A stretch of 64,000 nucleotides of DNA, taken from contig OZ024740.1 of NCBI GenBank assembly GCA_964016885.1, positions 221,836,001 through 221,900,000 on the forward strand, written 5' to 3'. The notes beneath the pieces are model-generated. The model had not been told where the DNA came from, did no database searches, and worked only from the letters and a program-made list of their open reading frames with translations. Every line of letters starts with the position of its first letter. The first letter of the stretch is position 1. Source of the DNA: Eledone cirrhosa (taxonomy: Eukaryota). Positions 378 to 56,144 of the stretch are shown one piece after another. The position numbers were made by a program, and so were the translations under genes.

Positions 378-611
378 CAGGACCCCGACGGCTGAGCTCC
401 GGCCGTTTCGACAGCTAGATCCGAACTCAGATCTAGCGCTGTAGAAACGACCGGAGCTCAGCCGTCGGGGTCCTGACTCTTTTCCTATTACCCAATCTAG
501 TAGATAGTAATAGGAAAAGAGTCAGGACACCGACGGCTGAGCTCCGGTCGTTTCTACAGCGCTAGATCTGAGTTCGGATCAAGCTGTCGAAACGGCCGTC
601 GGGGTCCTGAC
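378..611. mobile_element. Family A: 3' half of a hammerhead-bearing PLE-type terminal repeat, folded back twice
   Basis: GAAA-CGGCCG-TC-GGGG at 589-604 is HHR stem III plus a GUC cleavage site, preceded by a long stem-II hairpin. A homologous arrangement occurs at 19141-19260. Confidence 0.6.
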
Positions 612-2020
612 GCTTTTCATATATATATATATATATATATAGAGAGAGAGAGTTAGATATAGAGGAAGAATCGACCTTAGTGCTGGAATAGTACATTTTT
701 TATTGACCTGAAAAGGATGAAAGAAAATGTAGACCTCGAGGAAATGTGAACTCAGAGAGCAGAGAGTCGGAAGAAATACCGCAAAGCATTCTATCCGTCC
801 TTCTAATGATTCTGCCACTTCGGCGCGCTATGTAGAAATATTAGAAGCAGCGAAATTATTAGTTTATTCTTACATCATTCCATGAAAAACTTTCTTGCAA
901 TTCCAACAGAGATAGAAGAGTTTTTCATGTTTAAAAACATGTGTTTTGTTGAATTTAAAAGTGTTTGTTTTTTAACATGAGTTCGAATGGGAATAACTTC
1001 ATTGCATCTTAATTAAAAAAAATGAATTGCACAAACGCACAAAAAGATAAACACGTACTGGCACACACACATACATATATATTAGCACAGTGTAGATATT
1101 TAATAACAACATTACTTCAGATAATATATTAATACAACAGTCGCTCATACGAAGAATACTAGGAAGAGTTCCTATTAACCATTTCGTTAACACATTTCTA
1201 ATAAAAGATACTGTCTATTTTTTTCAAATAATTTCGAAAATAACAAGGAATTTGAAGTGATTTTGTAGCACAACTTTCTCATCATTAAGCGGGTGTATGG
1301 AGCACAAGCACAAAGTTTATTACTTAAAACAGATAGGAGGTATTTAGATAAATATAAACATTTGTGTCAGTCGGTTTGGTATAAAATCACAATAAATTTA
1401 TCTAATGATAAATAAAAAAATATGTATATATATGATACAGAAAGAAAGTGAATCTAAAAGGCAAAGAAAAGAACTGATCGTCATATCCCACTAGGTACAT
1501 TATATTTCCATTAGTCTTTTTATTGATGTTACTATCTACCAGCCGCAATTCCTGGTGGAGGAATTAATGTTTTTCAAGTGCCAGGAAGGTGGATTTGAAC
1601 TGAGAACATATAGAATTGGAACAGATATCGCAAAAGGTCCAACTACTCTTTAACAATCTCACTAATTCAGCGCCCATTGACTGGTACTTTATTTATCGAG
1701 CAAGATAGGATGAAAAGCAAACTCGACCTCGTTTGAATTTGAGCTTGGAATATAGCGAGCCAGAACAAATACTAAAATATTTGATCCGGCAGGTTAACGA
1801 CAACAAAACACTCACAACCTCTAAAAGTAGACAGGCACATAAATTACAGAAAATAATCGATAAAAAAAGGACAACGGAACCAATACACTACTTCCACTTG
1901 TCCAAATAAGAATATTTAGGTTTTACTACAGAACACACACACACAAACACATATATATATATATATATATAGGCATTGTTTATAGATTGGCATTGTTTAT
2001 ATATATATATATATATATAT

Positions 2021-2476
2021 ATAAAATAGAAGCTTTCACCGTATTTTTTTGACTAAAGAAATTTTAGTCTGATAGTGAGGTTTAGAGCCCTCAGAGAAAT
2101 GGAAAATGATGAGTATTGACGTACATGGGAGTCGAACCCACATCTTTGGTTATCCAGACCACTATGCTACTAGTACACCAACACATCATCCATGTCCTTC
2201 CATTCAAATTAGAAGTTACATTCTTAGCAAGTATGATGACAAGTAAGAATGTTTTGAAACAGCGGCAAGTTTGAAATTAGAAAATAGAAGCTTTCACCGT
2301 ATTTTTTTGACTAAAGAAATTTTAGCCTGATAGTTGGGTTTAGAACCTTTTTTCCATTTCTCTGAGGGTTCTAAAACCCACTATCAGGCTAAAATTTCTT
2401 TAGTAAAAAAAATACCTTGAAAGCTTCTATTTTCTAATTTCAAACTTGTTCTCTGTTTCAAAACATACTTACTTGA
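2021..2476. mobile_element. Family C: ~260-bp tandem unit with a tRNA-like segment plus an inverted copy, inserted in (TA)n
   Basis: AAATAGAAGCTTTCACCGTA occurs at 2023 and 2282, and an inverted copy spans 2348-2476. Homologues are at 25478-25711 and 37579-37795. Confidence 0.8.
2118..2187 (-). ncRNA. tRNA-like (Pol III A/B-box) sequence inside the Family C repeat; not a canonical tRNA gene
   Basis: Minus strand reads GATGTGT TGGTGTACTAGTAGCAT AGTGGT CTGGATA ACCAAAGAT GTGGG TTCGACT CCCAT GTACGTC. It has an acceptor stem with several G-U pairs, an anticodon-like arm, and a T arm with B-box GGTTCGACTCC. Confidence 0.6.
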
Positions 2477-2574
2477 TATATATATATATATATAAAAGTA
2501 AGTCCAAAGAATCATTAGATAAAATATATACTGTATTTCCTCTACCCTTTAAATTTAATATATACATATATATA

Positions 2575-3214
2575 TAAACAATGTCAATCTGCAACTCACA
2601 ATCTACAACCAGCAAATTACTCAAGTTACGGAGTTTGTATATCTCAATCACAAACTCTCATCAAACAACAATGGAATGGTTGCTGCGCAATATCGCATCG
2701 CACTAGGTTGGGCAGCTTTCAACAAGAACAAGGAGTGCTAACATCAAAACGAGTTTCCTATCATTTGAAGGCTAAGATCTTTGATACTTACATCCTACTA
2801 GTTGTGTTATATGGCCTTGACTGTGTTAATTGGATGACAAGGTCACTTCAGAAGCTCTCTACATTCCAGAACCACATCATGAGACTTATGGGAGGCAAGC
2901 AGCTCAGCAACTGTATCTGTATCAGTGAGCTGCTCAACATTACCAAACTTAGACCAATTACATCAATTGTCAAGTCAAGAGTACTCAAACTATACAGTCA
3001 TATAAAAAGATCAACTTGTGGTGTGAGTAGGCTATGTCTGGAAGGAAGGTTGACTGGTAAGAGAAGCAGAGGCCGGCAGCCAAAACGATGGCTTGATATT
3101 GTCAACTTATGGACTGGACTTGACCATTGCTCTTTGAACTCTGCTGCTGGTGATCGAACTTTGTGGAGAAAAATATCTGATGTTGATGCGCAGTCTGTAA
3201 CTGGCGGAGCTTAG
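2575..3214 (+). mobile_element. RTE-clade LINE 3' fragment (post-RT region), frameshifted
   Basis: Translation gives VTEFVYL...RIALGWAAF, then LKAKIFDTYIL.VVLYG.DC..W and GKRSRGRQPKRWLD, typical of the RTE C-terminus. Confidence 0.85.
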
Positions 3215-3539
3215 CATCACAAGAAGATTTGTACATGCATTTATATTTATGTACATGCATGTATATTTATGTATGTATATATGCAGCATAGTGGAATGTA
3301 TGTGTATATGCAGCATAGTGGAATGTCTAAGAATTTCAGTTCTGTCTTATACCATGCATAGCTTTAGGTCACTCCGAGCTTTGTATGAGGAACAGGATTG
3401 ATGGAAACTGTTTGGAAGAGTTTCAGTTAGTACCAAATATATAGAATATAGCAGTCTAATTCTTGAGGTGCCGAATTCTGTACTCATGCGCAAAGAAGCC
3501 TTATTTCTTATGAACATACAAACAAACAAAGAATATATA

Positions 3540-53950: not shown

Positions 53951-54383
53951 TCTAATGTAGAAGATTATCTAATCCTAAATTGATAGTACAAGCAAATGTG
54001 TTCTGAATTGTAACAAAAAAAACAAAAAAAAAACAAAAACAAACAAACAACAACAACAACAATAAAACAATCTAAAATTATTGGCCCGAAAATAGGTCAA
54101 ATAATAAAAGAGTAAAGATTAAATAGAAGAGTCATAACTAGTGGTTAATCTTTAAGGTAACTATATGGGTAATACAAATCTAGGTCTCATTGACAATTAG
54201 GTGTGTTTTATGCAGAGGTATAACAAGGGAATATAGCGCCCGTGACAAAGCTCCTGCTCACGCAGCAAGCTATATAGTAGTTGTTAGACAATTGGATTGA
54301 AAGGGCAGTTTAAATAAATGAGGGTTTAGTATATTAAACTGCATTTTCATTTGTTCTACAGATACCCTTTACGCTTAAATAGA

Positions 54384-54546
54384 CCGTATTTCCCGGCGCC
54401 GAAGACGCTTCGCCTCGAGGACGCACCCTAATTTTGACAACCAAAAATGTGAAAAAAAAAAATAACCTTCTGCCTCCAATACGCATGGTAGATTTTTGAG
54501 ACTTATTTTAGGAAAAAAGTAGCACCTTCGACGCCGGAAAGTACGG
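54384..54546. mobile_element. Tc1/mariner-superfamily (Tc2/pogo-like) MITE, 163 bp
   Basis: TIRs CCGTATTTCCCGGCGCCGAAG and CTTCGACGCCGGAAAGTACGG, the latter followed by TA. Confidence 0.75.
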
Positions 54547-55499
54547 TAAGTAAAGTATTGGCAAAAATGTTAGTGTATTTAAAGGGAGTAATCTGTGTAA
54601 TACTGATCTTTGACAAATATTTGACAAGTCATACTATGAACTATGCCTCTGTGATCATGTAGTTCCCATCACTGTATTTATACCTATGGGCCTAATGATT
54701 TATATAAACGGTTTAATGATCAGCCACAATAGTGTTTCTCACCCATGATAATCAAAGACAGATCATACAACTGAAGGAGTTTATTTTATCATTCTCTTAC
54801 GATAGCTTATTTGACTTTAATAGAAAGTGCTCCTAGTCCAGGTAGCGACTCCTTTCAAGAAGCGCCAATGGCACGTGCCATGCTTGCAATACCCTAGATA
54901 CGTCTCTGGTTTTATGAATAATTTCTGTTTTAGGCAAAATGCCAGTAATTTTGTGGGAGCAAAAAAGTCAATTAAATCGACCCCAGTAAATAACTGAAAT
55001 TATTTGTGTGAAGGCGTCTTACTTTGTGAATAGGGTGTTTGGCCCACACTCTTAACGTTGTGAATCCAATTCTTGGTGGTGCATTTTTGTCCTTGAGCAA
55101 GATACTTTATTTCATGTTGTTCCAGTTCAGTTAAGTGGCAAACGTGTTACGCTGAATCTCTTTGAGAACAATTTTAAGGGTGCTTGTGGCTGAAGAATGC
55201 TCAGCCACTTTTATGTTAATTTCTTAGGTAGACTGTTTCGCTATTTGAAATGAAGGAATAATGCATTAATTTCCATCCCCCAAGAACAGTTACTATCACT
55301 CATAAAGATACACATTCTTTTATTTTTTTACTTGTTGCAGTCATTAGATTGCAGCCATGTTTGACCACGGATTTGCAAGGATTTAATCGATCATATCGAC
55401 ACCAGTAATTTATTTTCATCTCCTCTACCTATTTTAACGATCAATGTTTGTCGAAACTCTGGTTTACGAGACATAAATACAGACACAGTGACAGACAAA

Positions 55500-55705
55500 A
55501 TTATATAGAGTCAAAAACAAAAAACACACTTTTTTTCATTCTCGTTCTTTTCTTTCTATGTTTCTTCCTAACTATTATGCAATTATACACCTGATGATGT
55601 CACCGGGTTCATACGTAACCTGGCCACTGAAATGTGCATAGTATTTGCAGTAATAAAATCTAAAGGAATACAACCTGTCCTGCCTCCGGTCATTTTACCT
55701 TATAA
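55500..55705 (+). mobile_element. Solo Family-E-related repeat end with a hammerhead at ~55586-55644
   Basis: CTGATGA-TGTCACCGGGTTCATACGTAACCTGGCCACT-GAAA-TGTGCA-TA-GTA...TAATAAA...GCCTCC.GTCATTTTA then (TA)n, homologous to the reverse complement of 46981-47094. Confidence 0.75.
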
Positions 55706-55770
55706 TATATATATATATATATATATATATATATACATATATATATATATACAAAAGTGTAAGTCACCAT

Positions 55771-56144
55771 GTTAAAATTAACTTCGTTTATTCATATTGA
55801 TGCAATATATATTACTCAACAGTTATGACCTCATCAGGCAGCTAGAACTTGAAGGGAAAATAGACAGAAAAATATAATGGTGGAACAAAATTTACCTCCG
55901 TTATTTTGTTCATATGCCTAGTTTCGAAGTGTGGTGTTGTTTTCTCGAGGTTGACTTTGCCTTTCATCCTTACGTGGTCGATAAAATAAAGTACCAGTAA
56001 TGCACTGGGTAATTGCTGGCCTTGTGCCTGAAGTAGAAACGATTATGTTTTCATTTTATTTTCTATTCAAGTTCTAGCTGCCTGATGGGGTCATCACCGA
56101 AATATATATTGCAGCGAATATGAATAAAAGAAGTTAATTTTAAC
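55771..56144. mobile_element. Family G: inverted pair of hammerhead-bearing repeats with a SINE fragment between the arms
   Basis: 55771-55880 is the inverted counterpart of 56040-56144. Confidence 0.8.
56077..56115 (+). ncRNA. Minimal hammerhead (A9 to G variant)
   Basis: GCTGC-CTGATGG-GGTCATCACC-GAAA-TATATA-TT-GCAGC with a 5-bp stem I. The mirror arm keeps CTGATGA. Confidence 0.7.

Follow-up and report, generated by a model that had tools for sequence, protein, structure and literature searches.

Head-to-head fold-backs of Penelope-like elements and ORF-less repeats at (TA)n tracts in Eledone cirrhosa

Why should repeats of several families, lying within one stretch of the Eledone cirrhosa genome, all fold back with the same polarity? 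In the 64,000-nucleotide stretch analysed here (contig OZ024740.1, positions 221,836,001 to 221,900,000; hereafter the window) inverted arms of six families, A to D, F and G, meet at their 5' ends and point their 3' ends outward into TA runs. An initial annotation treated the families as unrelated and ascribed them all to a single Penelope-like element (PLE) machinery that cuts (TA)n and primes cDNA either from both sides of the break or by snap-back. We consider it probable, at about 70%, that several separate PLE families inserted in (TA)n with both cut ends priming cDNA, one from a short and the other from a long start site. The features of the window are as follows.

369-499: family A fold-back, subfamily A1; short-end arm 369-424 (minus), long-type arm 427-499 (plus); 3' half of the hammerhead only
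510-618: mirror copy of the A1 fold-back, forming with 369-499 the centre of an inverted duplication
2020-2475: family C fold-back; minus arm 2020-2347 (1.3 units of the 258-nt unit, short end), plus arm 2350-2475 (long end)
2117-2187, minus: tRNA-like segment in the C unit, with A and B box motifs and then a T5 run
7150-8313: family B fold-back, tandem unit of ~430 nt; short end left, long end right
10435-11004, minus: solo family B copy
16418-16640: family D fold-back D1; short-end arm 16418-16485 (minus), long-end arm 16487-16640 (plus)
19056-19261: family A fold-back, subfamily A2; long-end arm 19056-19200 (minus), short-end arm 19203-19261 (plus)
19332-19543: family D fold-back D2, sharing a TA tract with A2
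25478-25714: second family C fold-back; long end left, short end right
37580-37727, minus: solo diverged family C arm
37801-38967: family F fold-back, unit ~610-650 nt; hammerhead-like motif in both arms
39051-39232, plus: partial family B arm
45935-45985, minus: family D short-arm fragment
55751-56273: family G fold-back; short-end arm minus (core 55837), long-end arm plus (core 56082), reaching a TA tract at 56274

Polarity and TA context of the fold-backs

The inverted structures named in the initial annotation were all recovered at or near their original positions, with arm identities of 82-100% and TA at or near every outer end. With the sense strand fixed by the ORF (A and D), the hammerhead core (B, F and G) or the tRNA-like head (C), the left arm is minus and the right arm plus in every family, as had been claimed. 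For the double A hairpin at 378-611 this is true of both inner hairpins but not of their centre (~500), which is tail-to-tail inside a larger inverted duplication; the two copies of flanking sequence in the latter (12-296 and 643-927) are 97% identical. The true outer ends often lie beyond those first recorded (A2 19056-19261, D1 16418-16640, D2 19332-19543, G 55751-56273). An unrelated repeat of ~100 nt (55946-56046) sits between the G arms.

Scored genome-wide against 50:50, the polarity is non-random. A sample of 1 Mb, taken as 10-kb stretches at 100 regular intervals, contained 29 close inverted pairs (gap ≤30 nt), 28 of them head-to-head and one tail-to-tail (p=1e-7). Neighbouring opposite pairs within 1 kb comprised 29 head-to-head and 10 tail-to-tail; a TA run separates the arms in eight of these ten, as expected of separate neighbouring insertions. 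Family F had no match in this sample. Among 40 matches to a young A subfamily, opposite-strand pairs within 6 kb were head-to-head in 16/16 cases, while clusters were minus-plus, plus-minus and compound in 21, 0 and 2 instances for B, and minus-plus versus plus-minus in 15 versus 1 for F and 8 versus 0 for G.

(TA)n adjoins the 3' end of 60/65 family A and 27/32 family D arms against a background of 10.8%, an enrichment which bears out the proposed (TA)n targeting. The median TA tract length was 53 beside young A ends (n=15) and 38 beside sampled A ends (n=41; p=0.12), the latter exceeding the value of 22 for all TA tracts (n=1,706; p=0.004); longer tracts are larger targets. No empty target sites for fold-back insertions were seen. 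The density of ~38 fold-backs per Mb (A 21, D 6, C 5, B 6) extrapolates to ~100,000 in 3.0 Gb, and palindrome generation on a genome-wide scale, as first suggested, is supported.

Autonomous elements and ORF-less units

The A and D repeats are the pLTRs of two autonomous Hydra-type PLEs, and the PLE origin put forward for the fold-backs is supported. The intact ORFs specify proteins of 717 aa (A, locus L385) and 709 aa (D, locus L282) that are 52.7% identical over 719 aa; these two families are related at the protein level, so that not all six are unrelated. Both ORFs contain YRDD (RT) and a C-terminal AYIGLT (GIY-YIG-type endonuclease); a motif scan added RW(R), DKT, a CxCx5C linker, CxxC and CxH, and inspection of the two translations by eye gave no CCHH. 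Pfam returned no match to either protein. PF01541 is present in their best homologue, and among the matches listed there are at least 120 homologues of 38-54% identity. L385 consists of an inverted arm plus a 3,530-bp tandem unit, its tail running on into the ORF, and L282 and L281 are built alike. The genome holds at least two further PLE ORF types (L291, L288). A link between family A and the L288 ORF was rejected, as orientation and L385 show an insertion into another PLE.

The family A candidate hammerhead folds into a three-way junction with a non-canonical U3/A8 core; the window copies of A carry just the 3' half of this ribozyme. In family D the candidate has A at position 4 and the predicted fold is not a hammerhead; a CTGAAGA on the D1 minus strand was discarded as the native core since it is made by the junction, native D having CAGAAGA. 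Among the runs matching family A there was no RNA run with a share above 0.06.

The repeat units of families B (~430 nt), C (258 nt) and F (~610-650 nt) lack an ORF and have a low GC content. B and C form tandem arrays (~16 C units at L286), and F occurs as partial tandems alone. A strict hammerhead scan of the window found none, so cores were read by motif; Rfam likewise gave no hammerhead among 150 of its 217 window matches that were listed, and its miRNA matches were set aside as microsatellite noise. B has a candidate type I hammerhead with a CTGATGA core and palindromic stem III, canonical cores lying at 7411 (minus) and 8057 (plus) in the fold-back. That of F, also type I, was identified by eye from a U3/A8 core and a 6-bp stem I and is conserved (30 copies aligned of 34); in the window the TTGATAAG core is at 38809 and GAAAC at 38877 (plus), mirrored at 38121 and 38059 (minus). 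The monomer MFE structures of the B and F units are without the hammerhead fold. An alignment of 29 C copies held no 5' hammerhead core on either strand, and only GAAAGCTTC resembles the 3' half. The tRNA-like head of C scores 41.3 bits against the Rfam tRNA model RF00005 (gathering 29), with no call from ARAGORN; the segment is internal to the tandem unit and precedes a T5 run, and its 3' edge is where many of the copies are cut short. The searches yielded no partner protein for B, C, F or G, and no meaningful sequence in common between these families and the A/D elements. At L291 a PLE ORF ends 1.5 kb upstream of G, with TA tracts and another repeat intervening.

Two end sites and the origin of the inverted arms

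The 3' ends of each family fall at two fixed sites, separated by ~35-260 nt that correspond to the PLE 'tail', and a fold-back almost always joins a short arm to a long one. Where both arms of a pair border TA and terminate at a defined site, this pairing holds in 49/51 for A (31/31 in loci not picked by the A search) and 32/32 for D; it holds in 12/14 C pairs having TA at both ends and, counting all minus-plus clusters, in 14/21 for B, 13/15 for F and 7/8 for G. One A1 35-mer, counted exactly across the genome, occurs with 790 short and 817 long ends. A third D end site at -538 and G matches at +152 and beyond proved to be microsatellite matches in the reference. Long and short A1 arms seemed to carry different alleles consistently, suggestive of two templates, but this was a query-selection artefact; in unselected A1 loci the rarer allele was present in 2/30 short-anchored and 1/30 long-anchored cases, in either arm type.

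The most telling copies are 13 young A insertions, 99.6-100% identical and drawn from one subfamily (4 of 16 pairs were omitted, and L372 was dropped, its second end falling outside the locus). All 13 are short plus long and every junction is distinct. The 5' stop positions of the arms are unrelated, and the arms meet at overlaps of 0-7 nt or small inserts. The short arm reaches further 5' in 6/13 (by 284-1,065 nt in five, the sixth being a tandem), the long arm in another 6/13, and in 1/13 they are equal. Since a copied arm must lie within its template, six events, whose arms cannot have been copied from one another in either direction, contradict self-priming, and asymmetric later deletion is unlikely given the near-identity of the copies. 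These arm extents favour two-sided target priming over the published self-priming; of the two routes initially offered, twin priming rather than snap-back is supported for at least six of the 13.

Four parts of the scheme are observed: besides the short-long pairing and the unrelated 5' stops of the young A arms, these are the outward orientation of all arm 3' ends, which border TA at one of two fixed sites in each family, and the intact RT-endonuclease ORF that A and D each supply for themselves. The endonuclease would cut both TA strands, and two RTs, perhaps as a dimer, would each elongate one of the resulting 3' ends. As the arms share sequence, this would call for either a pair of RNA templates or a tandem RNA from which two units are read. 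End-joining of both cDNAs would give the fold-back, and a lone surviving cDNA a solo copy. The ORF-less B, C and F may be moved in trans by PLE proteins. We would give even odds to the wider proposal that PLE integration is intrinsically two-sided and asymmetric, one particle priming both ends of the (TA)n break at different fixed start sites on separate RNA units. Such priming would replace the antisense self-priming model, accounting for both the tail and the head-to-head inversion. It would also extend to hijacking RNAs, among them the 258-nt unit that carries a tRNA-like head but no ribozyme, and ~100,000 hairpins built into this genome, possibly a major supply of dsRNA substrate for ADAR, would trace back to PLEs.

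Snap-back, in which a hairpin formed at the truncated end of the template or first cDNA is extended by copying to yield the inverted arm, is an unlikely alternative that nevertheless accords with several properties of the arms and may explain a symmetric minority. Paired arms belong to one subfamily as judged by eye, and variants are common to both (a mean of 3.6 mismatches within A fold-backs versus 7.6 between pairs, n=42). Centres are frequently near-symmetric, both arms of older short copies stopping within 5 nt of each other in 25/49 A and 9/32 D pairs; L386, a young 6.2-kb palindrome, is nearly symmetric over 3 kb, its arm ends 16 nt apart with a 7-nt overlap; and C centres often fall on a self-complementary CATG/GTAC stretch. 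L386 and the close arm stops would fit a shared RT stop site as well. Against copying, the short arm in six of the 13 young events has 5' sequence absent from the long arm, which itself has a tail absent from the short one, and eight further older pairs (A 2/49, D 6/32) have arms without any overlap. It is also quite improbable that pre-formed palindromic masters, MITE-like or SINE-like, were copied whole, the short-long rule being inherited and not remade at each insertion. Some A1 centres do recur near-identically, and truncation points cluster at about -17 (A) and -25 (D) from GAAA; but A centres mostly differ (49 listed variants among 52), the young long insertions have distinct junctions in 13/13 and still pair short with long, and, in contrast to terminal inverted repeats, the arms are unequal at their outer ends, the long one protruding by 35-260 nt.

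That one PLE protein moves all six families as small non-coding RNA parasites, the single machinery of the initial annotation, seems less probable still. The common target, polarity and two-end anatomy, the lack of an ORF in B, C and F and the identical variant core of A and F, by which F may rely on a protein like that of A, would suit it. However, A and D each encode their own intact protein, which already contradicts the idea for these two families, other PLE clades occur in the genome, no cis sequence is common to B, C, F, G and the A/D elements, and in a rotifer two PLE types showed no cross-mobilisation (PMC3846280). Least credible of all are library or assembly chimeras. The D1 arms are 100% identical over 68 nt, and no read or contig spans the whole 345-660 stretch; yet 10/11 arm pairs in the window are imperfect (82-97% identity) and the ends occupy two fixed positions. 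Furthermore, the two end types, with TA following 488 and tail following 499, were recovered along with joints across the fold centre in contigs from a pair of runs on one sample as well as in raw RAD reads from two others.

Comparison with known systems

In L1 twin priming, cDNA is primed from both target ends, giving a 5' inversion with short junction microhomology, and the arms are adjacent, non-overlapping parts of one RNA. The arms described here usually overlap, and both originate from fixed positions within the element rather than at a poly(A) tail. Our literature search, mostly of open-access texts without supplements, gave no prior statement of twin priming for PLE inversions, no PLE-linked tRNA-derived SINE with a hammerhead and no C3U/G8A cores.

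The canonical PLE insertion has an inverted 5'-truncated pLTR, head-to-head, with a tail at one end (PMC3846280; PMC8557442). Polarity, one-sided tail and (TA)n bias are thus already published and not new; microsatellite bias and indiscernible TSD also recur here. What goes beyond these accounts is the near-absolute short-long rule, quantified in six families, and tails of 35-260 nt compared with the published 30-40 nt. Self-priming on an antisense template has been proposed for PLEs (PMC3846280), and arm containment contradicts it in about half of the young events. The origin of inverted ends and tails was left open in PMC3846280, PMC8557442 and PMC11167929, and the rule is a sharp constraint which any PLE mechanism must reproduce.

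A and D share with the Hydra clade (PMC8557442) a length of ~710 aa, the motifs DKT, CxCx5C, CxxC and CxH without CCHH, (TA)n insertion and a candidate hammerhead in the pLTR. They differ in having RWR for RWK, a 3,530-bp unit (A) where described elements are generally <3 kb, non-canonical cores (U3/A8 in A, A4 in D), and intact near-identical young copies together with tens of thousands (extrapolated) of short fold-backs. The genome therefore offers an intact, recently active Hydra-type PLE, and many near-identical insertions whose arm extents discriminate between models. Metazoan non-LTR retrozymes (PMC7229834), for which PLEs have been proposed as mobilisers, are low-GC ORF-less units of 150-450 bp with a type I hammerhead each; B and C fit this size and F is longer, and the ribozyme is present as a candidate in B and F and absent in C. 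Unlike retrozymes, B, C and F display every hallmark of PLE insertion and lack a large TSD, and C has its tRNA-like head; they lend genomic support to PLE mobilisation of animal retrozyme-like units. Octopus is exceptional in its potential for near-perfect dsRNA and in hyper-editing (PMC5625713), and the extrapolated number of fold-backs bears on the dsRNA load of the present genome.

A close experimental system is the Poseidon PLE PAc (PMC11167929). In vitro it cuts and extends both strands at AT-rich DNA and initiates reverse transcription internally at two positions, which bound the tail; it inserts without need of ribozyme cleavage, and a dimeric state is predicted. The two strands were not seen to differ in start site in vitro, so the short-long rule is not explained by that study; the genome described here pairs unlike sites strictly, and its ends, unlike those of PAc, have short TAT-type matches to the target.

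Polarity of the fold-backs in the window and across the genome

The window is rich in TA and CA microsatellites (the assembly is 3.0 Gb), and all the inverted structures named in the initial annotation are present in it, with arm identities of 82-100%. Its claim of a minus left arm and a plus right arm is true of all six repeat families (A, B, C, D, F and G) once the sense is set independently, by a same-strand ORF for A and D, by canonical CTGATGA cores for B and G, by a variant hammerhead core for F, and by a tRNA-like segment for C, in which a hammerhead core is absent. Of the ribozyme, the A copies in the window contain just the 3' half. 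The minus-strand CTGAAGA of D1, the family D fold-back at 16418-16640, is a product of the junction. The A double hairpin at 369-618 consists of two fold-backs, tail-to-tail, inside an inverted duplication of the flank. Here, at 12-927, approximately 285 nt of flank plus microsatellite are duplicated in inverted orientation, 97% identical and centred tail-to-tail in the A element; this is probably a secondary fold-back rearrangement copying host DNA. Nested clusters, in which fold-backs of different families neighbour one another within a single TA tract, occur at window 19030-19580 and at loci L015, L110, L149 and L239 elsewhere in the genome.

In a sample of 100 stretches of 10 kb, spaced evenly along contigs C1-C14, opposite-strand neighbouring arms of the same family within 1 kb were head-to-head in 29 cases and tail-to-tail in 10, the latter with TA between the arms in 8; at gaps of ≤30 nt the counts were 28 versus 1 (p=1e-7). 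This sample contained no F and no G pair. When loci from the family searches were added to it, clusters were minus-plus in 21/21 simple inverted cases of B (two compound clusters aside), 15/16 of F and 8/8 of G. TA was present at the 3' end of 60/65 A arms, 27/32 D arms and 5/15 C arms, and at the 5' end of 4 A and 9 D arms; the background is 10.8% of random 16-mers. The checks by which the initial annotation proposed to refute its pattern thus gave, genome-wide, non-random arm polarity and, for A and D, TA above background. The pattern is real, strong and genome-wide. The fold-backs are unlikely to be chimeras: although no single record spans the whole 345-660 locus, both end types and centre-crossing joints were found in the contigs of one sample and in the raw reads of two others, and the arms within fold-backs differ in sequence.

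Two fixed ends and the identity of the families

The outward 3' ends of each of the six families fall at two fixed sites, a short end and a long end, the interval between them being the tail of a Penelope-like element (PLE).

End sites relative to the GAAA reference point
Family A: +42/44 and +122/126
Family D: +49 and +136
Family C: approximately +19 and +55

A 35-mer of subfamily A1 occurred at the short end 790 times and at the long end 817 times. If the sites were chosen independently about half of the fold-backs should pair short with long. After setting aside those with one end lacking TA (14 of 66 in A, nine of 42 in D) and one with an off-site end in each family, this pairing was observed in 49/51 A and 32/32 D fold-backs. 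It was also found in 12 of the 14 C pairs that had TA at each end, from a total of 28, and in 14/21 for B, 13/15 for F and 7/8 for G. A few long+long fold-backs occur (L052, L352). The long+short anatomy recurs in a seventh family of fold-backs, found at L282:283-655 and in L201, L220, L233 and L291; its hammerhead-like motif has A8, with U3 in one arm and C3 in the other, and a diverged copy lies near window 59614-59891.

Family D represents the terminal repeat (pLTR), together with the tail, of an autonomous element. At L282 this element has an inverted arm and a tail that leads into an intact 709-aa ORF; the ORF is followed by some 950 nt of 3' UTR and by the last pLTR. Family A belongs, as its pLTR, to a second autonomous element, whose intact 717-aa ORF lies in a 3,530-bp tandem unit at L385; the 40 matches listed for its upstream sequence were all 100% identical. 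The two proteins share 52.7% identity and the motifs RLRWR, DKT, YRDD, CxCx5C, AYIGLT, CxxC and CxH, by which they match the Hydra clade as described in the accessible text of PMC8557442. Among the matches listed, the homologue of the A protein with a named source is from a bivalve. ORF-less units make up B (tandem, ca. 430 nt), C (tandem, 258 nt, some 16 units in L286) and F (ca. 610-650 nt, in partial tandems); G has a canonical hammerhead core, and its link to an ORF is unproven. That a single PLE machinery serves all six families, as had been proposed, is contradicted by the separate ORFs of A and D, by the lack of meaningful sequence in common between B, C, F or G and these two elements, and by the additional PLE ORF types in L291 and L288.

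Other features of the window and of locus L291
12385-14679 (minus): decayed PLE ORF of a different family (RT, Zn-finger linker, GIY-YIG), with GIY-YIG at 12388-12855
61019-62944 (minus): decayed PLE ORF of a different family (RT, Zn-finger linker, GIY-YIG), with RT at 62075-62800
L291:3924-7387 (minus): 775-aa open frame, same PLE family as the two preceding ORFs
About 16716-17339 (plus): decayed GIY-YIG 3' fragment, directly after the D1 TA tract
17675: canonical CTGAAGA hammerhead-like motif, downstream of that fragment
49949-50521 (plus): decayed Hydra-like endonuclease fragment beginning at a long TA tract, matching the D protein at 38% identity across 84 aa
31535-32031: 69-bp tandem array within broken Rep/helicase frames

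These broken frames (31400-36122, plus) we take from their motifs to be Helitron-like; the single frame tested there had no match in Pfam. The open frame at 22696-23211 may be an 18S rRNA pseudogene fragment, judging from its translation, and no rRNA was found among the Rfam matches listed.

In its minimum-free-energy structure the full A motif takes the form of a three-way junction, and its folding energy is unexceptional (z 0.31). Its core reads UUGANAAG, in which U3 and A8 replace C3-G8; A8 is present in 8/8 distinct A copies, U3 being forced by the search pattern. The F core is the same (U3/A8), and in that of D position 4 is an A. Hammerhead cleavage depends on the 3-8 pair (PMC11167929, accessible text); we infer that the U3-A8 core may be cleavage-active in A and F. 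No earlier statement of a C3U/G8A core was found in the main texts of the accessible literature. The predicted cleavage site lies upstream of all insertion ends; the same holds for PAc, where insertion did not need cleavage (PMC11167929, accessible text).

Young insertions and the priming mechanism

Among the 40 matches listed for young A, a near-identical subfamily, opposite-strand pairs within 6 kb were head-to-head in 16/16. Both ends could be read in 13 insertions (12 of these pairs and one in L356), each of which paired short with long. The arm reaching further 5' was the short one in six, the long one in six, and one insertion was symmetric. The 13 junctions show 1-7 nt of overlap in eight, are blunt in two, and carry inserts of 1, 5 and 31 nt in three; short tandem duplications were seen at two junctions (L361-L387). 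The 5' truncation points recur at -959 (twice) and -1402 (twice) and cluster at -955 to -1077, which suggests RT pause sites. Locus L386:483-6700 is a 6.2-kb near-perfect palindrome of two 3-kb young A arms, each matching the reference unit at 99.9% identity.

Either twin priming, a mechanism of L1 elements, or snap-back had been offered as the origin of the fold-backs. In six of the 13 young A insertions each arm holds sequence missing from its partner and, since self-priming or snap-back can only yield a copy contained in its template, these need two priming events on RNA; twin priming is favoured and snap-back opposed in these cases. The simplest model, to which we assign a probability of roughly 0.7, is two-sided target priming, in which both cut ends would be extended by the PLE protein from two internal start sites and the two cDNAs would then be united by end-joining. 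It draws on these six cases and on the demonstration, in the accessible text of PMC11167929, of a PLE protein which cleaves and extends the two strands, with synthesis starting from two internal positions. It gives no reason for unlike start sites on the two sides. The model is weakened by the near-symmetry of many old, short fold-backs and by L386, symmetric over 3 kb; a minority may come from snap-back, or such centres could result from shared RT stop sites, both recurrent stops having been used by two young insertions each.

Comparison with known elements

No statement on twin priming for PLEs, or on a tRNA-bearing PLE parasite, was found in the accessible literature; the supplements of PMC8557442 and PMC11167929 may list end pairings or families of the present kind. 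In the accessible text of the following papers, PLEs are named candidate mobilisers of retrozymes (PMC7229834), and dsRNA potential is tied to hyper-editing (PMC5625713). Recently active Penelope-like families are listed for an octopus, the main text mentioning neither Hydra nor hammerheads (PMC13282606). An inverted 5'-truncated copy, a one-sided tail and (TA)n bias are described in the accessible text of PMC8557442, with TSDs often not discernible. The head-to-head polarity itself is a known PLE signature and not new, being the most frequently observed arrangement, with the tail on one inverted pLTR, in the accessible part of PMC3846280; antisense-template self-priming is proposed there, with models still to be discriminated. 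What is of value is the short+long rule as a sharp pattern, the non-autonomous units, and an intact young element of Hydra type, the insertions of which speak against self-priming as published.
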